In this document: positions 1-12,368 of the stretch, in pieces
How positions within the stretch are numbered: position 1 is the first letter of the stretch
How the letters are laid out: each line of letters begins with the position of its first letter
Program-made: the position numbers and the translations under genes
Virus record (IMG/VR): IMGVR_UViG_2531839473_000005
Length of the DNA: 12,368 bases
Origin: a virus
Taxonomy: Duplodnaviria > Heunggongvirae > Uroviricota > Caudoviricetes
Direction: 5' to 3' (one strand)
The notes under the pieces: generated by a model
The model's database searches: none
What the model was told of the DNA's origin: nothing
The model's input: only the letters and a program-made list of their open reading frames with translations

Positions 1-484
1 ACACCCGGAGACAACGGCTGACTAAGCTTACTCCCCATCCCCGGGCAATAAGGGCGCGTGCGCTATCCACTTTTTTGCCCGTCCATATTCAACGGCTTCT
101 TTGAGGAGTTCATTTTCCATCGTTTTCTTGCCGAGCAGGCGCTGGAGTTCTTTAATCTGCTTCATGGCGGCAGCAAGTTCAGAGGCAGGAACAACCTGTT
201 CTCCGGCGGCGACAGCAGTAAGACTTCCTTCCTGGTATTGCTTACGCCAGAGAAATAACTGGCTGGCTGCTACACCATGTTGCCGGGCAACGAGGGAGAC
301 CGTCATCCCCGGTTCAAAGCTCTGCTGAACAATTGCGATCTTTTCCTGTGTGGTACGCCGTCTGCGTTTCTCCGGCCCTAAGACATCAATCATCTGTTCT
401 CCAATGACTAGTCTAAAAACTAGTATTAAGACTATCACTTATTTAAGTGATACTGGTTGTCTGGAGATTCAGGGGGCCAGTCTA
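1..484 (-). mobile_element. IS2 (IS3 family), partial copy cut by window start; left inverted repeat (IRL) tip at 484 faces the window interior
   Basis: Reverse complement of 455-484 is TAGACTGGCCCCCTGAATCTCCAGACAACC, which I recognise as the IS2 IRL; encodes complete InsC; the last 27 nt before the window edge should be the start of insD. Mirror image of 11931-12368. Confidence 0.9.
28..393 (-). CDS. insC: IS2 transposase OrfA (InsC), 121 aa
   Basis: ORF 28-438 contains [58 protein letters not shown]..., matching IS2 InsC as recalled; start set at the internal Met. Confidence 0.9.
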
Positions 485-1345
485 CCAGGTCAGATTGTTG
501 TTTTACCGGAAAAATCCGGCTGGGTAGGTGTGTCAGCAATTTGCCCACCCGGTACGCTGGTGAATTATACATACCGTAGTTATGTCACCAACTTTGTTGT
601 TCAGGAAACTATCGATAATTATAAATATATGCAATTAAATGATTATCTATTAGGTGCGATGAGTCTGGTTGATAGCGTGATGGATATTCAGTTTCCCCCG
701 CAAAATTATATCCGTATGGGAACAGATCCTAACGTTTCGCAAAACCTTCCGTTCGGGGTGATGGATTCTCGTTTGATATTTCGTTTAAAGGTTATTCGTC
801 CTTTTATTAACATGGTGGAGATCCCCAGACAGGTGATGTTTACCGTGTATGTGACATCAACGCCTTACGATCCGTTGGTTACACCTGTTTATACCATTAG
901 TTTTGGTGGCCGGGTTGAAGTACCGCAAAACTGCGAATTAAATGCCGGGCAAATTGTTGAATTTGATTTTGGTGATATCGGTGCATCGTTATTTAGTGCG
1001 GCAGGGCCGGGGAATCGACCTAATGGTGTCATGCCACAAACCAAGAATATTGCGATCAAATGTACGAATGTTGCTGCGCAGGCTTATTTAACAATGCGTC
1101 TGGAAGCCAGTGCCGTTTCTGGTCAGGCGATGGTGTCGGACAATCAGGATTTAGGTTTTATTGTCGCCGATCAGAACGATACGCCGATCACGCCTAACGA
1201 TCTCAATAGCGTTATTCCTTTCCGTCTGGATGCAGCTGCGGCAGCCAATGTCACACTTCGCGCCTGGCCTATCAGTATTACCGGTCAAAAACCGACCGAA
1301 GGGCCGTTTAGCGCGCTGGGGTATTTACGCGTCGATTATCAATGA
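485..1345 (+). pseudogene. sfmH: Fimbrial adhesin-like protein SfmH, 5'-truncated by IS2 (about 287 C-terminal codons remain)
   Basis: Frame of ORF 350-1345 is open across the IS2 junction, but 350-484 is IS2 sequence; position upstream of sfmF-fimZ-argU matches the K-12 sfm operon order; no own start codon, signal peptide or RBS. Confidence 0.7.
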
Positions 1346-1355
1346 GGTACGGAGA

Positions 1356-1871
1356 ATGAGAAGAGTAATCTTTAGCTGTTTCTGCGGGCTACTGTGGAGT
1401 TCCAGTGGATGGGCAGCTGACCCTTTAGGAACGATTAATATCAATTTGCACGGTAACGTTGTTGATTTCTCCTGTACCGTAAACACAGCGGATGTTGATA
1501 AGACGGTAGATTTAGGCAGATGGCCTACGACACAACTACTGACCGCTGGCGATACCACGGCACCTGTTCCTTTTAGTCTGCGCCTGGAAGGATGTCCTCC
1601 GGGATCAGTCGCGATTTTATTTACGGGAACGCCGGCATCCGATGCCAACCTGCTGGCCCTGGACGATCCCGCAATGGCACAAACCGTCGCCATCGAATTA
1701 CGCAAGAGCGATCGCTCCCGGCTTGCGCTGGGCGAGGCGAGCCCGACTGAGGAGGTAGATGCAAATGGCAATGTAACGCTAAACTTTTTTGCCAATTATC
1801 GAGCGTTAGCCAGCGGTGTCCAACCAGGTGTGGCGAAAGCGGATGCGATATTTATGATCAATTATAATTAA
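1356..1871 (+). CDS. sfmF: Fimbrial-like minor subunit SfmF, 171 aa
   Basis: Start chosen at MRRVIFSCFCGLLWSSSGWA (signal-peptide-like) with GAGG upstream; the longer ORF from 1161 would overlap sfmH. Confidence 0.75.
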   Translation: MRRVIFSCFCGLLWSSSGWAADPLGTININLHGNVVDFSCTVNTADVDKTVDLGRWPTTQLLTAGDTTAPVPFSLRLEGCPPGSVAILFTGTPASDANLLALDDPAMAQTVAIELRKSDRSRLALGEASPTEEVDANGNVTLNFFANYRALASGVQPGVAKADAIFMINYN

Positions 1872-1873
1872 TA

Positions 1874-2506
1874 TTATATTAATTCATATAATTTGGCGTA
1901 GTCGATAAGTTCTACAATTGAATGCAAACCGAGTTTGCCATAAATATTAGATTTATGCGCACTAATTGTTTTATTGCTAAGTAATAGTTTGTCGGCAATT
2001 TCTTTATTAGATAATCCGCTAACCAGATAGCGTAATATAGTCACTTCACGATTAGATAGCACCGTAGCTGTTGAATTATTGGTGCTGCATTTATTACTTT
2101 TTATATAGTTGAGCGTTTCACTGGGAAAAAAAGTGTATCCAGAGAGAATCATCTGGACGGCATGAAAAATATCATTCTGATCATTGCATTTACTGACAAA
2201 ACCGTTAGCACCCGCTTGTATCGCTCTGCCCGCATAAAAGCATTCTGATTTTGATGATAAAAATAATACCTTCACCGTACTCTGGATTTGTTTGATTCTT
2301 TTCAGGAAGGTAAAACCGTCTGTACCGGGCAAGTCTATATCCATAATGATTAAATCAACAGGACGGGTTCGGAGATAATCGATGGTTATGCGGTAATCAT
2401 CCGTTTTCAGGACAATCTGCAATTCACTGTTTTTTTGCAACAGAACTTCAATGGACATTCTGATGATAGGATGGGTATCCATAATGATCACCGACGTTGG
2501 TTTCAT
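1874..2506 (-). CDS. fimZ: LuxR/FixJ-family response regulator FimZ, 210 aa
   Basis: MKPTSVIIMDTHPIIRMSIEVLLQKNSELQIVLK...LSNREVTILRYLVSGLSNKEIADKL matches FimZ as recalled (receiver domain plus LuxR HTH); start at internal Met of ORF 1874-2569. Confidence 0.9.
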   Translation of the reverse strand: MKPTSVIIMDTHPIIRMSIEVLLQKNSELQIVLKTDDYRITIDYLRTRPVDLIIMDIDLPGTDGFTFLKRIKQIQSTVKVLFLSSKSECFYAGRAIQAGANGFVSKCNDQNDIFHAVQMILSGYTFFPSETLNYIKSNKCSTNNSTATVLSNREVTILRYLVSGLSNKEIADKLLLSNKTISAHKSNIYGKLGLHSIVELIDYAKLYELI

Positions 2507-2689
2507 AGTTACCAGTCTCACAGGGTAGGACAATTTTCCGTTAGGGCTGGAAATTGTACTTTGATACATGAAAATACGGGTTTTCTTGATTCAGATGCGC
2601 AGCGGGGTGCGTTTGTTTGCCGCTATAGCGAAATAAATCAGAAAATCAGACGTGGTCGTTCACTTGTTCAGCAACCAGATCAAAAGCCA

Positions 2690-2717
2690 TTGACTCAGCA
2701 AGGGTTGACCGTATAAT
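2690..2717 (+). promoter_or_regulatory. Sigma70-type promoter upstream of argU (TTGACT, 16-bp spacer, TATAAT)
   Basis: -35 TTGACT at 2690-2695 and consensus -10 TATAAT at 2712-2717, about 30 nt upstream of the tRNA 5' end. Confidence 0.6.
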
Positions 2718-2748
2718 TCACGCGATTACACTGCATTGCGGTATCAAC

Positions 2749-2825
2749 GCGCCCTTAGCTCAGTTGGATAGAGCAACGACCTTCTAAGTCGTGGGCCGCA
2801 GGTTCGAATCCTGCAGGGCGCGCCA
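2749..2825 (+). tRNA. argU: tRNA-Arg (anticodon UCU); prophage attachment site
   Basis: GCGCCCTTAGCTCAGTTGGATAGAGCAACGACCTTCTAAGTCGTGGGCCGCAGGTTCGAATCCTGCAGGGCGCGCCA: cloverleaf features, anticodon loop CTTCTAA, encoded CCA; integrase gene starts 16 bp downstream. Confidence 0.9.
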
Positions 2826-2840
2826 TTACAATTCAATCAG

Positions 2841-4004
2841 TTACGCCTTCTTTATATCCTCCATAATTCCAGAGTGGGACATATTTGGGACATTATCACC
2901 AAAAATGTCGTCTATTTTCCTCGCATGCTCTGTCAAATGATTAGGCGCAAGGTGAGCATACCTACGAACCATTTCTATGGACTCCCATCCGCCCATTTCC
3001 TGAAGCACTGATAATGGGACGCCTGACTGAATCAGCCAGCTTGCCCAGGTGTGTCTGAGGTCATGGAAACGGAAATCTTCAATTCCTGCACGACGACAAG
3101 CTGATAGCCATGATGTCTTGCTGTCGATGCGCATCTTCCTGACCGCAGGCGTTGATGTTCCATCTGCTCGCTTAGCCGCCTTGGTATGTACAAACACCCA
3201 TTTGTGATGCTTGCCTATTTGATCACGCAACACTTTACAGGCGGTATCGTTCAGCGCCACACCAATGGCGCGGTTTGATTTGCTCTCTTCTGGATTCACC
3301 CAGGTAACTCGTCGCTGCATGTCGATTTGTTGCCATTCCAGATTTATGATGTTCGACTTTCTCAGACCAGTTGCCAGCGCAAACTTGACGACAGATTTCA
3401 GTGGTTCGGGGCACTCATCAATAAGGCGTTTTGCTTCCTCCTTTTCCAGCCATCTGACTCGCTTGTTTCTGACCGCTGGTATCTTGATGACAGGCGCTTT
3501 TTCCAGCCACTTCCAGTCGCGTTCTGCAGCACGGAGAATGGCCTTTATCATGGCAAGATGCTTTGCCTTTGTCTGAGTTGATACTGGCTTTGGTTCATAA
3601 ACAGGCGGTTCTTTACCTTTCCTGATGGCGGCCTGAACTTTCTGTTTCCATATTTCTTTCGTCTTTCTGTTATGCATTCTGCTTACAGCAGAGTAAATCT
3701 TTGCCTCCGAGATATCTTTAAGCCTTATACCCTCAAAATGTTCAAGCCAGAACTCAATCCGGCTTTTATCTGAATCGAGAGATTTTTTATCAGCTTTTTC
3801 CTCAAGCCATCTTAGGCAGGCCTCTTCAAAAGTGACATCAGGTAAATCCCCTAGCTTTTCTACTCGCCAGAGTTCTGCTTTTCGCTTGTCGTGCAACTCC
3901 TGAGCTTGCCGCTTGTCCTTTGTGCCAAGAGATTCCTTAATTCGTTTCTCGCCCGGGAGCGAATACGAGGCATACCATATTTCATTTCTGCGGAAGAGTG
4001 ACAT
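2841..4004 (-). CDS. intD: Prophage tyrosine integrase (DLP12 IntD-like), 387 aa
   Basis: Sits directly beside the tRNA; C-terminal HDLRHT...YAHL motifs (tyrosine recombinase R-H-R-Y signature); N-terminus [18 protein letters not shown] recalled from argU-associated integrases. Confidence 0.85.
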
Positions 4005-4231
4005 TTTCTTTCCTCTGTTATGCCATCACCCGCGCTCACCTGGACAGTATGCAGCGGAGACTGAAGCGCCGCAATGCAGGCTTGCCGTGTTGTGAGGTAA
4101 GGAGATTTTGGCTTGGTTGGATCTTTACGTGTTGCCTGTAGGCGGCCTGTTCGTATCCAGTTGGTGGCGGTTGGTCTGGATATCTTAAGAAACTGACAGG
4201 CCTCATCGAGTGTGAGGCTGTATGATTCCAT
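3860..4231 (-). CDS. xis: Excisionase-like DNA-binding protein; 3' end overlaps int in another frame
   Basis: Start set at [31 protein letters not shown] (AlpA/Xis-type HTH) with GAGGTAACC RBS; immediately upstream of int. The true 3' end is uncertain. Confidence 0.55.
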
Positions 4232-4481
4232 GGTTACCTCTGCTTTTTGAACGCATGTCACGTAACTTCTTAATGTGTTCTGCCGTTTCGATCTCTTCTG
4301 CTATCCGATCTGCATCAGCTTTATTCACAGGTTCAAAGTCATGATTAAAGCGGAACATGCTGGCGATACATGTTCTGCCTTTTCGGATGTAGTGAACTTT
4401 GTTGTGGGTAGAACGCAGGATTTTGCAGGGAGTGCCGTGGTGGTCGACGTACCAGGTGTTAGGAAAAATGATTCTGAACAT
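4203..4481 (-). CDS. Hypothetical prophage protein, 92 aa
   Basis: ORF with GAGGTG RBS 7 nt upstream of ATG; start overlaps the xis start by 29 nt; not recognised. Confidence 0.5.
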   Translation of the reverse strand: MFRIIFPNTWYVDHHGTPCKILRSTHNKVHYIRKGRTCIASMFRFNHDFEPVNKADADRIAEEIETAEHIKKLRDMRSKSRGNHGIIQPHTR

Positions 4482-4537
4482 TTTTACACCTCAGTTGGAC
4501 GATGTTGAAATTTGCTGCTTTGAGGCCATCACAGTCC

Positions 4538-4747
4538 CTATTGTTTGTTCTTAAGTTCGATCTCCTCCTGGCAACTCGCACAAGTCCGACAACCCTGAAC
4601 AGCCAGGCGTCTTCGCTCATCTATCGGATCGCCACACTCACAACAATGAGTTGCGGATACAGTCTGGTAGTTCAGACGACGCATTTTTATTGCTGTATTG
4701 CGCTGTAATTCTTCGATTTCTGATGCTGAATCAATGATGTCTGCCAT
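4538..4747 (-). CDS. TraR/DksA-family C4 zinc-finger protein, 69 aa
   Basis: C-x2-C-x17-C-x2-C pattern (HCCECGDPIDERRRLAVQGCRTCASCQ) typical of TraR/DksA zinc fingers common in prophages. Confidence 0.7.
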   Translation of the reverse strand: MADIIDSASEIEELQRNTAIKMRRLNYQTVSATHCCECGDPIDERRRLAVQGCRTCASCQEEIELKNKQ

Positions 4748-4796
4748 CTTTCATTAATCCCTGAATTGTTGGTTAATACGCTTGAGGGTAAATGCG

Positions 4797-4823
4797 AATA
4801 ATAAAAAAGGAGCCTGTAGCTCC
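4797..4823 (-). terminator. Rho-independent terminator (minus strand) between two small accessory genes
   Basis: Minus-strand GGAGC-tacag-GCTCC hairpin followed by TTTTTTATTATT, 23 nt downstream of the stop of ORF 4846-5127. Confidence 0.5.
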
Positions 4824-4845
4824 CTGATGATTTTGCTTTTCATGT

Positions 4846-5127
4846 TTACCGTTCCTTAAAGACGCCGTTCAACATGCCGATCGCCAGGCTTAAATGAGTC
4901 GGTGTGAATCCCATCAGCGTTACCGTTTCGCGGTGCTTCTTTAGTACGCTACGGCAAATGTCATCGACGTTTTTATCCGGAAAATGCTGTCTGGCTTTTT
5001 TGATTTCAGAATTAGCCTGACGGGCAATGCTGCGAAGGGCGTTTTCTTGCTGAGGTGTCATTGAACAAGCCCCATGTCGGCAAGCATAAGCACACAGAAT
5101 ATGAAGCCCGCTGCCAGAAAAATGCAT
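4846..5127 (-). CDS. Hypothetical prophage protein (93 aa ORF; likely 71 aa from internal MTPQQENALR start at 5061)
   Basis: Open frame followed by a terminator; no convincing RBS at the first ATG; not recognised. Confidence 0.45.
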   Translation of the reverse strand: MHFSGSGLHILCAYACRHGACSMTPQQENALRSIARQANSEIKKARQHFPDKNVDDICRSVLKKHRETVTLMGFTPTHLSLAIGMLNGVFKER

Positions 5128-5137
5128 TCAGTGGTTG

Positions 5138-5329
5138 TCATACCTGGTCTCTCTCATCTGCTTCTGCTTTCGCCACCATCATTTCCAGCTTTTGTGAAAG
5201 GGATGTGGCTAACGTATGAAATTCTTCGTCTGTTTCTACTGGTATTGGCACAAACCTGACTCCAATTTGAGCAAGGCTATGTGCCATCTCAATACTCGTT
5301 CTTAACTCAACAGGAGATGCTTTGTGCAT
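5138..5329 (-). CDS. Hypothetical prophage protein, 63 aa
   Basis: Good RBS (GGGAGG 5 nt before ATG); acidic C-terminus; not recognised. Confidence 0.55.
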   Translation of the reverse strand: MHKASPVELRTSIEMAHSLAQIGVRFVPIPVETDEEFHTLATSLSQKLEMMVAKAEADERDQV

Positions 5330-5490
5330 ACCGCCTCCCGTTTATTATTTATCTTCTCAGCCAGCCGCTGTGCTTTCAGTGGATTTCTGATAACAGAAAG
5401 GCCGGGAAATACCCAGCCTCGCTTTGTAACGGAGTAGACGAAAGTGATCGCGCCTACCCGGATATTATCGTGAGGATGCGTCATCGCCAT
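5302..5490 (-). CDS. Hypothetical prophage protein, 62 aa
   Basis: Start overlaps the exo stop by 10 nt (coupling-style arrangement), GGGGA upstream; overlaps the next ORF by 28 nt; not recognised. Confidence 0.4.
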
Positions 5491-6161
5491 TGCTCCCCAA
5501 ATACAAAACCAATTTCAGCCAGTGCCTCGTCCATTTTTTCGATGAACTCCGGCACCATCTCGTCAAAACTCGCCATGTACTTTTCATTCCGCTCAATCAC
5601 GACATAATGCAGGCCTTCACGCTTCATGCGCGGGTCATAGTTGGCAAAGTACCAGGCATCTTTTCGCGTCACCCACATGCTGTACTGCACCTGGGCCATG
5701 TAAGCCGATTTTATTGCCTCGAAACCACCGAGCCGGAATTTCATGAAATCCCGGGAGGTAAACGGGCATTTCAGTTCAAGGCCGTTGCCGTCACTGCATA
5801 AACCATCGGGGGAGCAGGCGGTGCGCATACTTTCGTCGCGATAGATGATCGGGGATTCAGTAATATTCACGCCGGAAGTGAATTCAAACAGGGTTCTGGC
5901 GTCGTTCTCGTACTGTTTTCCCCAGGCCAGCGCCTTAGCATTAACTTCCGGAGCCACACCGGTGCAAACCTCAGCCAGCAGGGTGTGGAAGTAGGACATT
6001 TTCATGTCAGGCCACTTCTTTCCTGAGCGGGGCTTTGCTATCACGTTGTGAACTTCTGAAGCGGTGATGACGCCGAGCCGTAATTTGTGCCATGCATCAT
6101 CCCCCTGTTCGACAGCTCTCACGTCGATCCCGGTACGCTGCAGGATAATGTCCGGTATCAT
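5481..6161 (-). CDS. exo: Lambda-type exonuclease (Red alpha), 226 aa
   Basis: [65 protein letters not shown]... is near-identical to lambda Exo as recalled; ATGA overlap with bet. Confidence 0.95.
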
Positions 6162-6943
6162 GCTGCCACCTTCTGCTCAGTGGCTTTCTGTTTCAGGAAT
6201 CCAAGAGCTTTCACTGCTTCGGCCTGTGTCAGTTCTGACGATGCGTGAATGTCGCGGCGAAATATCTGGGAACAGAGCGGCAATAAGTCGTCATCCCATG
6301 TTTTATCCAGGGCGATCAGCAGAGTGTTAATCTCCTGCATGGTTTCATCGTTAACCGGAGTGATGTCGCGTTCTGGCTGACGTTCTGCAGTGTATGCAGT
6401 ATTTTCGACAATGCGCTCGGCTTCATCCTTGTCATAGATACCAGCAAATCCGAAGGCCAGACGGGCACACTGAATCATGGCTTTATGCCGTAACATCCGT
6501 TTGGGATGCGACTGCCACGGCCCCGTGATTTCTCTGCCTTCGCGGGTTTTGAATGGTTCGCGGCGGCATTCATCCATCCATTCGGTAACGCAGATCGGAT
6601 GATTACGGTCCTTGCGGTAAATCCGGCATGTACAGGATTCATTGTCCTGCTCAAAGTCCATGCCATCAAACTGCTGGTTTTCATTGATGATGCGGGACCA
6701 GCCATCAACGCCCACCACCGGAACAATGCCGTTCTGCTTATCAGGGAAGGCGTAAATTTCTTTCGTCCACGGATTAAGGCCGTACTGGTTGGCGACGATC
6801 AGCAATGCGATGAACTGCGCATCGCTGGCATCACCTTTAAATGCCGTCTGGCGAAGAGTGGTGATCAGTTCCTGTGGGTCGACAGAATCCATGCCGACAC
6901 GTTCAGCCAGCTTCCCTGCCAGCGTTGCGAGTGCTGTACTCAT
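6158..6943 (-). CDS. bet: Red beta single-strand annealing protein, 261 aa
   Basis: [66 protein letters not shown]... is near-identical to lambda Bet as recalled. Confidence 0.95.
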
Positions 6944-6948
6944 CCGTT

Positions 6949-7245
6949 TTATACCTCTGAATCAATATCAACCTGGTGGTGAGCAATGGTTTCAACCATG
7001 TACTGGATGTGTTCTGCCATGCGCTCCTGAAACTCAACATCGTCATCAAACGCACGGGTAATGGCTTTTTTGCTGGCCCCGTGGCGTTGCAAATGATCGA
7101 TGCATAGCGATTCAAACAGGTGCTGGGGCAGGCCTTTTTCCATGTCGTCTGCCAGTTCTGCCTCTTTCTCTTCACGGGCGATCTGCTGGTAGTGACGCGC
7201 CCAGCTCTGAGCCTCAAGACGATCCTGAATGTAATAAGCGTTCAT
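6949..7245 (-). CDS. gam: Gam (RecBCD inhibitor), short 98-aa form
   Basis: [60 protein letters not shown]... matches the C-terminal 98 aa of lambda Gam; strong RBS CAGGAGGT; in-frame stop 19 codons upstream excludes the longer form. Confidence 0.9.
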
Positions 7246-7320
7246 GGCTGACCTCCTGAAAATGGCTGTGAAAATATCGCCCGCGAAATGCCAGGCTGAT
7301 TAGGAAAACAGGAAAGGGGA

Positions 7321-7611
7321 TTAGTGATTCAGGCCGTTACCGCGTCCGTCGAGAAAAACTTCCACGAGCAAATCACGGGTATAAGTGCGCTCGATGCCGC
7401 GATGCAGATAAAGCCGTCCGCGTAAATTAGCTGATGCAGTCCAGGTACCATCTTTGTGTTTGACCAGCATTCCTGGCATGACCGCACCTCGATTAACGGT
7501 CTGCGTTCCATAATGTTGATGAACCATAAAAACTCCTGCCCGTAAGCTGGGCTGCTGAACATATAGAGACTTCTGCGCGTATTCAGGCGGTGGATGGCCG
7601 CCGGTTGTCAT
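7321..7611 (-). CDS. Hypothetical protein at the kil/cIII position, first gene of the leftward early operon (96 aa; possible 68-aa form from internal Met)
   Basis: Longest ORF after the PL-like promoter; GAGG 13 nt upstream of first ATG; an internal ATG has a stronger RBS (GGGCAGGAG); a nested 77-aa ORF in another frame makes the call uncertain. Confidence 0.4.
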
Positions 7612-7804
7612 AACTAAGCCGCCTCGTTGAAGCGACTAAGGTATGAAATGTTGAGTTAATTTCAGCTGGTCACACCGACGTTCACGCGTCCGTTTCACCC
7701 CTCGCACTCCCCGAAGCCTGCTGAAATTCAAACTGCGGATCTAAGCGGTCATCGCAACGGTGAATCAGGTAGTTGCCGTATCGTTGTGTTGTTGCGATGA
7801 ACTT

Positions 7805-7856
7805 ATTTAAAACTATAGTTGTTTTATTGTCAACAACAAAAGTTGTTTTATTGGTT
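7805..7856 (-). promoter_or_regulatory. PL-like leftward early promoter with OL-like operator repeats
   Basis: Minus strand: TTGACA (7833-7828), 17-bp spacer, TTAAAT (7810-7805); -35 embedded in GTTGTTGACAATAAAACAAC with flanking AACAAC/GTTGTT inverted and direct repeats. Confidence 0.5.
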
Positions 7857-7974
7857 GTTTTAGATATAACTGGTTGTATTTAGGATGGATTTATTTTGTG
7901 ACTTGAATCGCATAGCGATAACTGAAGTGAGGTTATGGTGGTTTTTTTAACGGTGTGTGTGATGAGGGGAGGGC

Positions 7975-8001
7975 AAAAGAAAACCCGGCACGGTGACCGG
8001 G
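7975..8001 (-). terminator. Rho-independent terminator downstream of the repressor gene
   Basis: Minus strand CCCGG-N8-CCGGG hairpin followed by TTTTCTTTT, about 120 nt after the cI stop. Confidence 0.55.
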
Positions 8002-8122
8002 ATTCTTACGCCGTTAGGTAAAGATATTATTGCGGTGGCTTAATATTACTACCTAGAGCAAAGATAGGAATTAGTTCTTTACTGAATGAGCACAATGCCC
8101 AGTTGATAATTTTTAATTGGTA

Positions 8123-8812
8123 CTACCCATGCTTCCTATATGTCTGCGGCATGCTCCCAATAACCTTACCGAAGATGAACACCCGGTTCATCTCGTCTTT
8201 CTCGATCGGGTCCCACGGTGAGTAGCTTTTGTTATCAGAGATGACCAGCAGCTTATCCTTCATCATTTGCAGGCGCTTTACATGGGCTGTGTCGTCGTAC
8301 AGAAACGCATAGATACCATCACCGTCGAAAGATTTAACTGTGATATCAACGAACAGCAGATCACCTGGTTCGATCGTTCCTGACATGCTGTCACCACGCA
8401 CGTTAATGATGCGGATATTTTCCGCCTTCCTACCATCGAACATGTGACGAGCATCGTCAAACGAGTACTCAACCGAGCGTAGAACTTCTACAAACTCACG
8501 GTTGATGACTCCCGGCCCAGCACTGACTTCTATATCAAGAACGTCAATCTTGAAGTATTTGGAATGGCTGACAGTTGATTGTATTGGTTGCACTGTACTG
8601 TCTGACATATTTCCAACGCCAGAAGATAACCATTCTGCGCGCACACCCAAAGCGTTCGCGATCTCCACGATTTTAGTTGTTTGATTAGCTTTCCCTGTTT
8701 CGATTTTCTGAATAGCAGCCTGGCTAACCCCGACCAAATCCCCAAGCGCCTTTTGTGTAAGGCCTCGCGCTAATCTGGCTTCTTTAAGTCTTTCTGAGAG
8801 TGTTGTTTTCAT
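8123..8812 (-). CDS. cI: CI-type prophage repressor (XRE-family HTH plus S24 LexA-like autopeptidase), 229 aa
   Basis: N-terminal HTH (LTQKALGDLVGVSQAAIQKIETGK); C-terminal RGDSMSGTIEPGDLLFVD and downstream HVKRL (Ser/Lys dyad); start at internal Met because the longer ORF would run through the operator. Confidence 0.85.
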   Translation of the reverse strand: MKTTLSERLKEARLARGLTQKALGDLVGVSQAAIQKIETGKANQTTKIVEIANALGVRAEWLSSGVGNMSDSTVQPIQSTVSHSKYFKIDVLDIEVSAGPGVINREFVEVLRSVEYSFDDARHMFDGRKAENIRIINVRGDSMSGTIEPGDLLFVDITVKSFDGDGIYAFLYDDTAHVKRLQMMKDKLLVISDNKSYSPWDPIEKDEMNRVFIFGKVIGSMPQTYRKHG

Positions 8813-8823
8813 AGTCCAAATGT

Positions 8824-8889
8824 ACAACCAAGGTTTTATTCCATCAAACGAAAATGGTTGTTGACTAAAAACAACCATAGTTTTAATCT
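8824..8889 (+). promoter_or_regulatory. OR-like operator region with rightward PR-like promoter
   Basis: Palindrome ATGGTTGTT-gactaaa-AACAACCAT (8854-8878) containing -35 TTGACT (8861-8866); candidate -10 TTTAAT (8882-8887); second half-site pair ACAACC-aa-GGTTTT at 8824-8837; cro RBS ACGGAGG follows. Confidence 0.55.
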
Positions 8890-8916
8890 TGATTCAAATT
8901 AACCACGGAGGTTGTT

Positions 8917-9147
8917 ATGAACCCAGCTATCAAAACAGCGATCAATATCGTTGGTTCACAAAAGAAACTGGGCGCTGCTTGCGAAGTTTCACAGCAGGCC
9001 GTCTATAAGTGGCTTCACAACAAAGCAAAGGTATCCCCTGAACATGTCGGCAGCATTGTTACGGCTACTGGTGGAGTAGTGAAGGCATACCAGATTCGCC
9101 CGGATCTTCCGAAGTTGTTTCCACACACCGAAAAGAACGCAGCTTAA
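8917..9147 (+). CDS. Cro/YdaS-like HTH regulator, 76 aa
   Basis: Divergent from the repressor across the operator; HTH segment LGAACEVSQQAVYKWL; size and position typical of Cro. Confidence 0.75.
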   Translation: MNPAIKTAINIVGSQKKLGAACEVSQQAVYKWLHNKAKVSPEHVGSIVTATGGVVKAYQIRPDLPKLFPHTEKNAA

Positions 9148-9216
9148 ATTTCCATTTCACGCTCTTTAACAATAAGCAATCAACTTAACAGTCAATTCAA
9201 ACTAAAGGAGTCAATT

Positions 9217-9756
9217 ATGCAACCACTTACATACCAACAGACTAGCGGATTTAGCCCGACTGCGGTGATAAATCGTTCTCAAACAAAACAGGTGCCAGGC
9301 CACGAAAAAATCCGTGATGCCGTCCGCGCCTGGTCGGCTGTAGATAATCAGGATGTCGTTGCCACACTCATTGTGAATGAGTATCGGGAGCAGGGCGGCG
9401 GCACCATCGATTTCCCTGATGATGTCAGCCGTGCACGCCAGAAGCTGTTCCGCTTCCTCGATAACAAATTCGATTCTGAAAAATACCGAAATAACGTGCG
9501 TGAACTGACCCCGGCAATTCTGGCGGTACTACCGCTGGAATATCGCGGTTACCTGGTTGAGCAGGATAGCTTCATGGCTAGGTTGGCTGAAATGGAAAAG
9601 GAACTCAGTGAGGCAAAACAGGCTGTCATTCTCAACGCACCACGCCACCAGAAACTGAAGGAAATTAGTGAAGGTATTGTGTCGATGTTTCGTGTGGACC
9701 CAGATCTGGCTGGTCCATTGATGGCGATGGTTACTACCATGCTGGGGGCGATATGA
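9217..9756 (+). CDS. YdaT-like protein occupying the cII position, 179 aa
   Basis: AAAGGAG RBS; motifs IVNEYREQGGG and LTPAILAVLPLEYRGYL resemble Rac YdaT as recalled (EYLRQGGG, LIPAILAILPRELR). Confidence 0.6.
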   Translation: MQPLTYQQTSGFSPTAVINRSQTKQVPGHEKIRDAVRAWSAVDNQDVVATLIVNEYREQGGGTIDFPDDVSRARQKLFRFLDNKFDSEKYRNNVRELTPAILAVLPLEYRGYLVEQDSFMARLAEMEKELSEAKQAVILNAPRHQKLKEISEGIVSMFRVDPDLAGPLMAMVTTMLGAI

Positions 9757-9842
9757 CAGGTTCAGAAATGGCGAAAGCCGGTCTGCTGGAACAGAACCGA
9801 CTTTCAGGTGCAAATCGTAACACACTCATTGCGGGAGGAATT

Positions 9843-10772
9843 ATGGCAAACACTGCTGAGATATTCAATTTTCCAGTGCCGGATGCGGCACAAAAGGAGC
9901 CGCGCGTGGCAGATCTCGATGATGGTTATACGCGCATTGCAAATGAGTTGCTGGAAGCTGTGATGCTGGCCGGATTAACACAGCACCAGCTTCTGGTCTT
10001 TCTGGCTGTCATGCGCAAAACATATGGCTTTAATAAAAAACTGGATTGGGTTAGCAACGAGCAACTTTCCGAATTAACCGGGATATTGCCGCACAAGTGT
10101 TCTGCTGCAAAAAGTGTTCTGGTAAAGCGTGGGATTTTTATTCAGAGCGGGCGGAATACCGGCATTAATAATGTGGTCAGTGAATGGTCAACATTACCCG
10201 AATCAGGTAAGAAAAATAAAGTTTACCTGAAAGAGGTAAATTTACCTGAATCAGGTAAAAAAAGTTTACCCAAATCAGGTAAAGGCGTTTACCCGAATCA
10301 GGTAAACACAAAAGACAAACTAACAAAAGACAATATAAAACCTTTTTCGTCCGAGAATTCTGGCGAATCCTCTGACCAACCAGAAAACGATCTTCCTGTG
10401 GTGAAACCGGATGCTGCAATTCAGAGCGGCAGCAAGTGGGGGACAGCAGAAGACCTGACCGCCGCAGAGTGGATGTTTGACATGGTGAAGACCATCGCGC
10501 CATCAGCCAGAAAACCGAATTTTGCAGGGTGGGCTAACGATATCCGCCTGATGCGTGAACGTGACGGACGTAACCACCGCGACATGTGCGTGCTGTTCCG
10601 CTGGGCATGCCAGGACAACTTCTGGTCCGGTAACGTGCTAAGTCCGGCCAAACTCCGCGACAAGTGGACCCAACTCGAAATCAACCGTAACAAGCAACAG
10701 GCAGGCGTGACAGCTAGCAAACCAAAACTCGACCTGACAAACACAGACTGGATTTACGGGGTGGATCTATGA
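9843..10772 (+). CDS. O: Lambda O-like replication initiator, 309 aa from this start
   Basis: MANTAEIFNF...VADLDDGYTRIANELLEA...KTYGFNK resembles the lambda O N-terminus as recalled; RBS GGGAGGA; iterons inside the gene; an alternative upstream start at 9753 exists. Confidence 0.85.
   Translation: MANTAEIFNFPVPDAAQKEPRVADLDDGYTRIANELLEAVMLAGLTQHQLLVFLAVMRKTYGFNKKLDWVSNEQLSELTGILPHKCSAAKSVLVKRGIFIQSGRNTGINNVVSEWSTLPESGKKNKVYLKEVNLPESGKKSLPKSGKGVYPNQVNTKDKLTKDNIKPFSSENSGESSDQPENDLPVVKPDAAIQSGSKWGTAEDLTAAEWMFDMVKTIAPSARKPNFAGWANDIRLMRERDGRNHRDMCVLFRWACQDNFWSGNVLSPAKLRDKWTQLEINRNKQQAGVTASKPKLDLTNTDWIYGVDL
10191..10345. repeat. Origin of replication: 4-5 iterons plus A/T-rich region inside the O gene
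   Basis: Repeats of TTACCCGAATCAGGTAAA-like units (TTACC...GGTAA palindromic) at about 10191-10309, followed by aaacacaaaagacaaactaacaaaagacaatataaaa; same architecture as ori-lambda. Confidence 0.7.
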
Positions 10773-11470
10773 AAAACATCGCCGCACAGATGATTAACTT
10801 TGACCGTGAGCAGATGCGTCGGATCGCCAACAACATGCCGGAACAGTACGACGAAAAGCCGCAGGTACAGCAGGTAGCGCAGATAATCAACGGTGTATTC
10901 AGCCAGTTACTGGCAACTTTCCCGGCGAGCCTGGCTAATCGTGACCAGAACGAACTGAACGAAATCCGCCGCCAGTGGGTTCTGGCTTTCCGGGAAAACG
11001 GGATCACCACGATGGAACAGGTGAGCGCCGGAATGCGTGTTGCCCGTCGGCAGAATAGACCATTTCTGCCATCACCCGGGCAGTTTGTTGCATGGTGCCG
11101 GGAAGAAGCATCCGTTACCGCCGGGCTGCCAAACGTCAGCGAGCTGGTTGATATGGTTTACGAGTATTGCCGGAAGCGTGGTCTGTATCCGGATGCAGAG
11201 TCTTATCCGTGGAAATCAAACGCGCACTACTGGCTGGTTACCAACCTGTATCAGAACATGCGGGCCAATGCGTTGACTGACGCGGAATTACGGCGCAAGG
11301 CTGCCGATGAACTGTCCTGTATGACCGCGCGAATTAACCGTGGTGAGGCGATACCTGAACCAGTAAAACAACTTCCTGTCATGGGCGGTAGACCTCTAAA
11401 TCGTGCACAGGCTCTGGCGAAGATCGCAGAAATCAAAGCTAAGTTCGGACTGAAAGGAGCAAGTGTATGA
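10769..11470 (+). CDS. P: Lambda P-like replication protein (DnaB helicase loader), 233 aa
   Basis: MKNIAAQMINFDREQMRRIANNMPEQYDEKPQVQQVAQIINGVFSQLLATFPASLANRDQNE... is near-identical to lambda P as recalled; ATGA overlap with the O stop. Confidence 0.9.
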   Translation: MKNIAAQMINFDREQMRRIANNMPEQYDEKPQVQQVAQIINGVFSQLLATFPASLANRDQNELNEIRRQWVLAFRENGITTMEQVSAGMRVARRQNRPFLPSPGQFVAWCREEASVTAGLPNVSELVDMVYEYCRKRGLYPDAESYPWKSNAHYWLVTNLYQNMRANALTDAELRRKAADELSCMTARINRGEAIPEPVKQLPVMGGRPLNRAQALAKIAEIKAKFGLKGASV

Positions 11471-11769
11471 CGGGCAAAGAGGCAATTATTCATTACCTGG
11501 GGACGCATAAGAGCTTCTGTGCACAGGACGTTGCCGCGGTAACAGGCGCAACCGTAACCAGCATAAATCAGGCTGCGGCTAAAATGGCGCGGGCAGGAAT
11601 CCTGGTCGTTGATGGTAAGGTCTGGCGAACGGTGTATTACCGGTTCGCTACCAGAGAAGAACGGGAAGGAAAGGTGAGCACGAATCTGATTTTTAAGGAG
11701 TGTCGCCAGAGTGCCGCGATGAAACGGGTACTGAGGGTATATAAAAGAACATCAATGGGAACACAATGA
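11467..11769 (+). CDS. ren: Ren-like protein, 100 aa
   Basis: MTGKEAIIHYLGTHKSFCAQDVAAVTGATVTSINQAAAKMARAGILVVDGKVWRTVYYRFATREEREGK resembles lambda Ren as recalled; ATGA overlap with the P stop. Confidence 0.8.
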   Translation: MTGKEAIIHYLGTHKSFCAQDVAAVTGATVTSINQAAAKMARAGILVVDGKVWRTVYYRFATREEREGKVSTNLIFKECRQSAAMKRVLRVYKRTSMGTQ

Positions 11770-11786
11770 TGAAACAGGTGAGTTGA

Positions 11787-11821
11787 GTTCAAACTGTAGT
11801 ACAATTCTCTCCAGTTTGAAC
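11787..11821. repeat. Perfect 10-bp inverted repeat with 15-bp spacer, immediately upstream of the emrE RBS
   Basis: GTTCAAACTG-tagtacaattctctc-CAGTTTGAAC; no U-tract after it, so not a canonical intrinsic terminator. Confidence 0.6.
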
Positions 11822-11836
11822 AGGAAAGAATATGCT

Positions 11837-11930
11837 ATGAACCCTTATATTTATCTTGGTGGTGCAATACTTGCAGAGGTCATTGGTACAACCTTAATGA
11901 AGTTTTCAGAAGGTTTTACACGGTTATGGC
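11837..11930 (+). pseudogene. emrE: SMR-family multidrug efflux gene emrE, truncated after codon 31 by IS2
   Basis: MNPYIYLGGAILAEVIGTTLMKFSEGFTRLW matches the EmrE N-terminus as recalled; RBS AGGAAAG; the IS2 IRL begins at 11931. Confidence 0.8.
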
Positions 11931-12368
11931 TAGACTGGCCCCCTGAATCTCCAGACAACCAGTATCACTTAAATAAGTGATAGTCTTAATACTAGTTTTT
12001 AGACTAGTCATTGGAGAACAGATGATTGATGTCTTAGGGCCGGAGAAACGCAGACGGCGTACCACACAGGAAAAGATCGCAATTGTTCAGCAGAGCTTTG
12101 AACCGGGGATGACGGTCTCCCTCGTTGCCCGGCAACATGGTGTAGCAGCCAGCCAGTTATTTCTCTGGCGTAAGCAATACCAGGAAGGAAGTCTTACTGC
12201 TGTCGCCGCCGGAGAACAGGTTGTTCCTGCCTCTGAACTTGCTGCCGCCATGAAGCAGATTAAAGAACTCCAGCGCCTGCTCGGCAAGAAAACGATGGAA
12301 AATGAACTCCTCAAAGAAGCCGTTGAATATGGACGGGCAAAAAAGTGGATAGCGCACGCGCCCTTATT
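11931..12368 (+). mobile_element. IS2 (IS3 family), partial copy cut by window end; IRL tip at 11931 faces the window interior
   Basis: Begins TAGACTGGCCCCCTGAATCTCCAGACAACC; reverse complement of the left copy (1-484) over the shared length, with identical ORF translations. Confidence 0.9.
12022..12368 (+). CDS. insC: IS2 transposase OrfA (InsC), 3'-incomplete at window edge
   Basis: ATG at 12022 followed by [18 protein letters not shown]...; runs to the end of the window. Confidence 0.85.

Follow-up and report, generated by a model that had tools for sequence, protein, structure and literature searches.

The window analysed here, a stretch of 12,368 nt, very probably ends on both sides in separate IS2 copies that are simple insertions in sfmH and emrE, located at the two ends of one draft contig. 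Each copy would have arrived by ordinary copy-out/paste-in transposition, at CCAGG in sfmH and at ATGGC in emrE, inactivating both genes. The two elements are oppositely oriented, and the left end of each (IRL and orfA) points towards the 11.4-kb segment between them. Since each site has its own 5-bp duplication and a gene that can be rebuilt, two independent transpositions are indicated. Accessory genes of E. coli are routinely knocked out by IS2, and the biology of these insertions is already known, real but ordinary. Of the two genes struck, sfmH encodes a cryptic fimbrial adhesin and emrE an efflux pump carried on the prophage; their loss carries little import beyond bookkeeping. A literature search yielded nothing specific on this assembly or scaffold accession, nor on IS2 in connection with emrE or DLP12.

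The window coincides exactly with a single contig in scaffold GL872046.1 (GCA_000190955.1, draft E. coli; positions 362028-374395), and N-gaps of the scaffold abut both of its ends, one ending right before base 1 and the other starting right after base 12368. Both contig ends fall inside IS2, about 440-480 nt into the element, where the assembler probably failed to cross the 1.3-kb repeat. IS copies terminating contigs are routine in draft E. coli assemblies; when inverted copies of one repeat form both ends of a window, that window most likely represents an entire draft contig, and not too much should be read into the identity of its ends. The outer parts of the two elements were identified in the neighbouring contigs. 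They measure 487 and 484 nt and show two substitutions, to which the right copy adds an apparent 1-nt deletion near IS2 position 880. In total, 971 and 922 of the 1331 nt of IS2 are sequenced, the remaining 360-409 nt of each copy being N-gap. The scaffold gap estimates are 85 and 315 N, as against missing IS2 stretches of 360 and 409 nt, and a single IS2 thus fits at each site. The orientation of this contig within the scaffold derives from the submitters' mate-pair data. Furthermore, one locus record (L003) is identical to window positions 1837-12368 across 10532 nt, and the order of the flanking genes (sfmA-C-D ... ylcJ-ybcK-ybcL) matches that of uninterrupted genomes.

The two ends of the window form one long inverted repeat with arms at 47-484 and 11931-12368 (438 nt, 100% complementary, spacing 11446 nt), and a perfect repeat of this length is far beyond chance. 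The sequence-only reading had paired 11931-12368 with the whole of 1-484; the reverse complementarity holds over all 438 nt, but the left partner is 47-484, and bases 1-46 are further IS2 sequence left unpaired because the window end cuts the right arm. Because the contig is broken within a repeat at both window ends, a repeat consensus could account for part of the perfect match (100%) between the arms. In the alignment to K-12 IS2A (NC_000913.3 381260-382590), the left arm (1..484, minus strand) covers IS2 positions 1-484 and the right arm (11931..12368, plus strand) positions 1-438, each with 99.8% identity (483/484 and 437/438 nt, respectively). The sole difference in either arm is A>G at IS2 position 32, giving CAACCAGTATCAC. 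This shared end variant had been taken as a mark of sister copies; G32 is indeed present in both arms, but the allele is widespread (an exact 90-nt match with G32 in 2379 of 7215 matching E. coli records) and therefore does not show sister copies, and it was rejected as a non-diagnostic, common allele.

The inner tips of both arms read TAGACTGG, a TA-3' terminus adjoining orfA. The ends of IS2 are imperfect repeats, a 42-bp IRL with a TA-3' terminus and a 41-bp IRR with a CA-3' terminus (PMC3299598), and by this definition the IRL faces inward on both sides, as had been proposed from the letters alone. The IRL lies at 443-484 and 11931-11972, in keeping with the terminal repeats that define IS2, and the IRR (…GGGGCAAATCCA) was located in two loci of the source scaffold, L011 (from 8074) and L003 (up to 11331). 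In IS2, orfA (HTH) overlaps a following orfB (DDE/rve), to which it is joined by a programmed -1 frameshift. The left arm, truncated where the contig stops, contains all of orfA/insC (minus strand, 28-393) besides the IRL and continues through the A6G frameshift motif into orfB; the Pfam domain HTH_Tnp_1 is on record for its called gene. The right arm, truncated in the same way, has the IRL, an orfA/insC that runs from 12022 and the A6G motif, and orfB is otherwise represented only by rve fragments of its C-terminus in the adjacent contigs. The elements share with K-12 IS2A the IRL with its TA-3' end, orfA and the A6G motif, the IRR with its CA-3' end and rve-domain orfB (neighbouring contigs) and 5-bp duplications, and differ from it at IRL position 32 (A>G), by two substitutions in orfB (positions 900 and 906) and in their sites, sfmH and emrE. 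Published IS2 biology (PMC3299598) agrees with what is seen here in both the termini (IRL/IRR) and the direct repeats of 5 bp.

For the left insertion, an uninterrupted genome (NZ_CP151042.1, locus L001; 99.1% identical over window 485-11930) served as reference. Alignment to L001 places window position 485 at sfmH nt 148, with the first 147 nt (49 codons) absent from the window, which bears out the reported loss of the 5' end of the gene. The 3' fragment (485..1345, plus strand) represents nt 148-1008 of the 1008-nt gene (L001 3854-4861; RefSeq name fimH) and begins with CCAGG (485..489, sfmH nt 148-152), the inner target-site duplication of the left IS2. The junction reads CCAGTCTA|CCAGG in the window and ACCAG CCAGG|TGGATTTGCCCC (the IRR) in the neighbouring contig, where the left IS2 runs on to an IRR bordering CCAGG and the 5' end of sfmH, with sfmD upstream. 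The target duplication and the missing 5' portion, suggested earlier as features to be sought outside the window, were thus both found, and joining the sfmH flanks across IS2 minus one CCAGG restores an intact ORF of 335 aa. A truncated sfmH call starting at GTG-350 (331 aa), an IS2::sfmH fusion ORF, is recorded only in GCA_000190955.1 by exact protein match; a start at ATG-404 is not on record. A 200-nt query spanning the sfmH::IS2 junction had 0 matches in 5,426 complete E. coli genomes.

On the right, emrE starts at 11837 and the last base before IS2 (11930) is nt 94, so that the described cut after codon 31 is placed at codon 31 plus one base. Translation and alignment to intact emrE delimit a 5' fragment of nt 1-94 (11837..11930, plus strand), which reads into IS2 up to 11980, giving a fusion ORF of 47 aa, and carries at its end the inner target-site duplication of the right IS2, ATGGC (11926..11930, emrE nt 90-94). 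The junction reads GGTTATGGC|TAGACTGG in the window and GGGGCAAATCCA|ATGGC CATCTG in the neighbouring contig, and in the scaffold the right IS2 continues to an IRR that borders ATGGC and the 3' end of emrE, beyond which lie ylcJ and ybcK. Here, too, the anticipated duplication and missing gene portion were recovered, and emrE rebuilt across IS2 minus one ATGGC is identical to the intact gene. The emrE::IS2 fusion ORF occurs in 4 contigs, including the independent assembly GCA_040048615.1, and the other carriers are a few strains with a nearly identical prophage. Another strain with the same emrE junction shows 4 differences in the first 146 nt of IS2, which makes common descent of that insertion uncertain. 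It is conceivable but improbable that the emrE position is an IS2 hot spot struck independently in different strains, which would account for one junction with two IS2 alleles. Two apparent matches to the emrE junction among the 5,426 complete E. coli genomes contain an intact emrE, with IS2 located downstream beside fliE.

We infer that the sfmH insertion is the younger event because it was seen only in this assembly and emrE::IS2 in others as well, an order that depends on which records contain each insertion in a database queried solely by exact protein match. The nearby emrE element may have been the source from which the sfmH copy arose. Junction searches of the 5,426 complete E. coli genomes and the exact protein matches identified no other genome with both insertions together, and the exact patterns of both junctions had 0 matches in species-representative genomes and JGI metagenomes. 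The top whole-window matches that seemed to cover an IS2 arm carry IS2 in fimZ instead.

An assembly artefact, in which one collapsed IS2 consensus was attached to both contig ends and at least one junction is false, would explain why scaffold gaps within a multicopy repeat adjoin the window ends exactly and why the arms match at 100%, and would be in keeping with the median of ~3 IS2 places per E. coli genome. However, each junction has a distinct unique flank and an IRR partner with a matching duplication, the genes are rebuilt exactly, the emrE junction is present independently in other assemblies, and matching 5 bp at both sites by chance has odds of about 1 in 10^6, all of which renders an artefact extremely improbable. 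That the IS2 pair and the enclosed DNA moved, or move, as a composite transposon is suggested by the same IS lying inverted on both sides of the 11.4-kb segment, yet the chance of this is close to negligible: the segment occupies its native sfm-argU-DLP12 locus and is flanked by the genes that also flank it in uninterrupted genomes, and one duplication surrounds each IS2 and none the whole unit, which sets the pair apart from composite transposons. Furthermore, both outer ends are IRR, whereas IS2 circles join an IRR donor to an IRL recipient (PMC3299598).

The two simple insertions also place a pair of long homologous repeats on one replicon in inverted orientation, the arrangement of an IS-bounded invertible segment, and 1.3-kb inverted homologies could in principle recombine in a RecA-dependent manner and flip the segment. 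When inverted IS copies recombine, a copy stays at each end and IS-flank junctions are neither gained nor lost (PMC5009759); inversion therefore makes no new junctions, and the contigs, being alike in both isomers, cannot reveal flipping. It is very unlikely that the segment was wholly or partly inverted in the sequenced culture, with the scaffold orientation arbitrary or showing the majority isomer only. All three contigs would be identical in either isomer, short inserts cannot discriminate between them (PMC5009759), and the breaks inside both IS2 copies leave the orientation unfixed in the window itself. Against this, the scaffold shows the segment in its native order, collinear with uninterrupted genomes, with a matching duplication around each IS2, and in mutation-accumulation lines IS2 accounted for only 2 of 98 IS recombination events, which were mostly between elements 1-3 kb apart (PMC5009759). 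IS-bounded chromosomal inversions through homologous recombination, described from E. coli long-term evolution lines (PMC4173774), mutation-accumulation lines (PMC5009759) and Shigella (PMC8072062), likewise involve an inverted IS pair on one chromosome, but the present segment is short (11.4 kb), scaffolded in native order and a substrate only. Flipping at a measurable frequency, which would make the segment an IS2-bounded switch, is conceivable but improbable. If it did occur, argU, attL, int and the immunity/replication region would be reversed relative to the remaining prophage, and Int recombination would invert the DNA rather than excise it, locking the prophage in place. This would constitute a small natural case of IS-mediated inversion immobilizing a prophage, still a known type of event.

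The enclosed segment of ~11.4 kb has the order sfmH'-sfmF-fimZ-argU-int...O-P-ren-emrE'. Two intact chromosomal genes, called and annotated as in the RefSeq record of L001, follow sfmH: sfmF (1356-1871, plus strand; Pfam Fimbrial) and fimZ (1874-2506, minus strand; Pfam Response_reg, GerE). The prophage attachment locus argU, a tRNA-Arg(UCU), was identified at 2749..2825 (plus strand) by ARAGORN and by the Rfam tRNA model (72.1 bits), and the Rfam scan of the window detected no other family. The left arm of a DLP12-like lambdoid prophage (2841..11769) was delimited from precomputed Pfam domains and RefSeq names in L001 and a second locus, L002. Its minus strand encodes intD (2841-4004; Phage_integrase), small early genes, exo (5481-6161; YqaJ), bet (6158-6943; RecT), gam (6949-7245; Gam), kil (7321-7527; KilR) and a cI-like repressor (8123-8878; HTH_3+Peptidase_S24). 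A cro/YdaS-like gene (8917-9147; YdaS_toxin), a YdaT-like gene (9217-9756; YdaT_toxin), O (9753-10772; Phage_rep_O), P (10769-11470; Phage_lambda_P) and ren (11467-11769) are encoded on the plus strand. The argU locus, the intD integrase and the ren-emrE-ybcK-ybcL-ybcM...rusA-Q-porin-lysis order are shared with DLP12 of K-12, the left arm of which is largely deleted and bears IS3. In contrast, the prophage described here retains the Red genes, kil, the repressor, the cro-like gene, O, P and ren, and carries IS2 in emrE.

The window contains a single long inverted repeat, the arms of which (47-484 and 11931-12368; 438 nt, spacing 11446 nt) were 100% complementary in a repeat search of the window. 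Bases 1-46 continue the left arm and have no partner because the window end cuts the right arm. In an alignment with IS2A of E. coli K-12 (NC_000913.3, 381260-382590), the left arm corresponds to IS2 positions 1-484 (minus strand) and the right arm to positions 1-438 (plus strand), each with one difference, A>G at position 32, which is the end variant CAACCAGTATCAC highlighted in the sequence-only reading. The inner tips of both arms read TAGACTGG... and bear a TA-3' terminus on the orfA side. In IS2, the TA-3' end on the orfA side is the left terminal repeat (IRL) and the CA-3' end the right one (IRR) (PMC3299598); both IRLs therefore face inward, as proposed from the sequence. The orfA (insC) gene is complete in the left arm (28-393, minus strand) and cut at the window end in the right arm (from 12022); both arms carry the A6G frameshift motif.

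A 47-aa ORF, in which emrE codons 1-31 run on into IS2, was located via a public gene-position index on four contigs, including GL872046.1 of the draft E. coli assembly GCA_000190955.1. This locus matches window 1837-12368 with 100% identity over 10532 nt, and a run of N starts directly after the base matching window 12368, while on the left side, found via sfmF, an N run stops directly before window base 1. The window is therefore an entire contig of the draft assembly (GL872046.1 positions 362028-374395), and both of its ends are assembler stops inside a repeat. At both gaps, the contig ends on either side extend 438-487 nt into IS2, and the gap sizes of 85 and 315 N, compared with 360 and 409 nt of missing IS2, fit room for one IS2 per site.

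Between the arms, window 485-11930 aligns in one piece, with 99.1% identity, to many E. coli chromosomes lacking IS2 there, such as NZ_CP151042.1, in which the gene order is sfmD, sfmH (labelled fimH), sfmF, fimZ, tRNA-Arg, intD, Red genes, repressor, O, P, ren, emrE, ylcJ and ybcK. Relative to this chromosome, the segment begins at sfmH nt 148 (window 485) and ends at emrE nt 94 (window 11930; codon 31 plus one base). The tRNA-Arg(UCU) gene argU (2749-2825) and the Pfam families of the genes from there to emrE (Phage_integrase, YqaJ, RecT, Gam, KilR, HTH_3+Peptidase_S24, YdaS/YdaT, Phage_rep_O and Phage_lambda_P) justify the earlier label 'argU-int-cI-O-P'; the segment represents the left arm of a lambdoid prophage resembling DLP12.

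The outer IS2 ends were read from the neighbouring contigs of GL872046.1. On the left, sfmD and sfmH nt 1-152, ending in ...ACCAGCCAGG, are followed by TGGATTTGCCCC... (IRR), and CCAGG also adjoins the IRL of the left copy inside the window; present at both edges, CCAGG is thus the 5-bp duplication in sfmH. On the right, the inner junction in the window consists of ...GGTTATGGC abutting TAGACTGG, and the outer junction on the next contig of ...GGGGCAAATCCA, ATGGC and CATCTG..., followed by the remaining emrE, ylcJ and ybcK, so that ATGGC flanks the right copy on both sides and is the duplication in emrE. When the flanks were joined across each IS2 minus one duplication copy, sfmH was restored as an intact 1008-nt ORF (335 aa; 31 substitutions compared with the reference allele, frame undisturbed) and emrE was identical to the intact gene at 333/333 nt. 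Both the target duplications and the missing sfmH 5' and emrE 3' parts, which the sequence-only reading had suggested looking for beyond the window, were thereby recovered. Such junctions mark two simple IS2 transpositions that occurred independently and inactivated two accessory genes, each insertion with its own target duplication. The finding is accurate but ordinary, involving known biology throughout: two IS2 insertions in a draft contig.

The outer flanks thus belong to sfmH and emrE, and the ends are not a single collapsed repeat. An assembly artefact is rejected in view of the unique flank at each junction, the reciprocal IRR junctions and the matching duplications. A composite transposon is likewise rejected, given the native context of the segment, the separate duplication of each IS and the fact that both outer ends are IRR, whereas during circle formation by IS2 an IRR donor is joined to an IRL recipient (PMC3299598).

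When inverted IS copies recombine, the DNA between them is inverted; one copy remains on either side and no IS-flank junction is gained or lost, and short-insert data are therefore blind to inversion (PMC5009759). The three contigs would be identical whichever isomer is present, as they would be if the segment were already inverted or in a mixed state; such a state is possible but not favoured by the scaffold, in which the orientation, set only by the submitters' mate-pair scaffolding, is native. The inversion potential earlier attributed to the IS2 pair is correct as general knowledge rather than from anything specific to this locus. In mutation-accumulation lines, IS2 accounted for 2 of 98 IS recombination events (PMC5009759).

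The common end variant had also been described as expected for sister copies. They do share G32, but this end is not diagnostic of sister copies, as an exact 90-nt match to it occurs in 2379 of 7215 matching E. coli records. Both copies additionally share two orfB substitutions (positions 900 and 906). Outside the window, at ~10880 of the GL872046.1 locus (IS2 position ~880), orfB of the right copy lacks one nucleotide (G) compared with the left copy and K-12 IS2A. This deletion lies 33 nt from the contig end and may be a contig-end sequencing error; if real, the transposase of the right copy would be frameshifted and the copies distinguishable. Furthermore, the contigs end within a multicopy repeat, so the arm sequences may be partly consensus.

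In the form annotated in the assembly (331 aa), the IS2::sfmH fusion ORF is recorded only in GCA_000190955.1, and neither the sfmH::IS2 nor the emrE::IS2 junction was detected among 5,426 complete E. coli genomes, species-representative genomes or JGI metagenomes. At least one further, independent assembly (GCA_040048615.1, 32-kb contig JAQFKW010000053.1) contains the emrE junction, with IS2 at the identical position and in the same orientation as the right copy. Across the comparison (window 1837-12076), the prophage part differs by 6 mismatches in ~9.2 kb (99.93% identity) and the fimZ flank by 48 in ~0.85 kb, which argues that the emrE::IS2-carrying prophage, and not the chromosomal flank, is common to both strains. 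Of the two insertions, the one in emrE appears to predate the private one in sfmH. In the IS2 on the 32-kb contig, the first 146 nt contain 4 mismatches to the window, including A instead of G at position 32, which could reflect a contig-end repeat consensus, gene conversion/IS homogenisation or an independent insertion at the same site (hot spot). In two clinical E. coli genomes (including NZ_CP173472.1, 405224-410631), an emrE homologue with IS2 directly downstream adjoins fliE and fliF, followed by ybcL and ybcM; this emrE-ybcL module has a different context, with IS2 where ylcJ and ybcK would be.

In the O gene of the prophage (9753-10772), a palindromic unit of 17-19 nt, TTACC(C/T)GAATCAGGTAA, occurs five times at 10194-10310 (19-29 nt spacing), followed by an A-rich stretch (10308-10337). 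As this arrangement is similar to that of the iteron-type origin in lambda O, the array is probably the prophage ori. The cI-like repressor (HTH_3 + Peptidase_S24; 8123-8878, minus strand) is annotated with 251 aa in some assemblies and 229 aa in others, corresponding to two alternative start codons, and divergent operator-like inverted motifs (TGGTTGTT...AACAACCA) occur at ~8855-8878 and ~7800-7870. The ~500 bp separating kil from the repressor gene (window 7612-8122) contain no ORF of at least 50 aa; this position corresponds to that of pL, nutL and N in lambda. On the minus strand, a hairpin with a subsequent T-run (~7975-8010) was noted by eye directly downstream of the repressor gene. The prophage porin gene at the nmpC position (17457-18539 of the GL872046.1 locus) is an intact 360-aa ORF in the source strain; the K-12 DLP12 copy is presumably interrupted by IS5.
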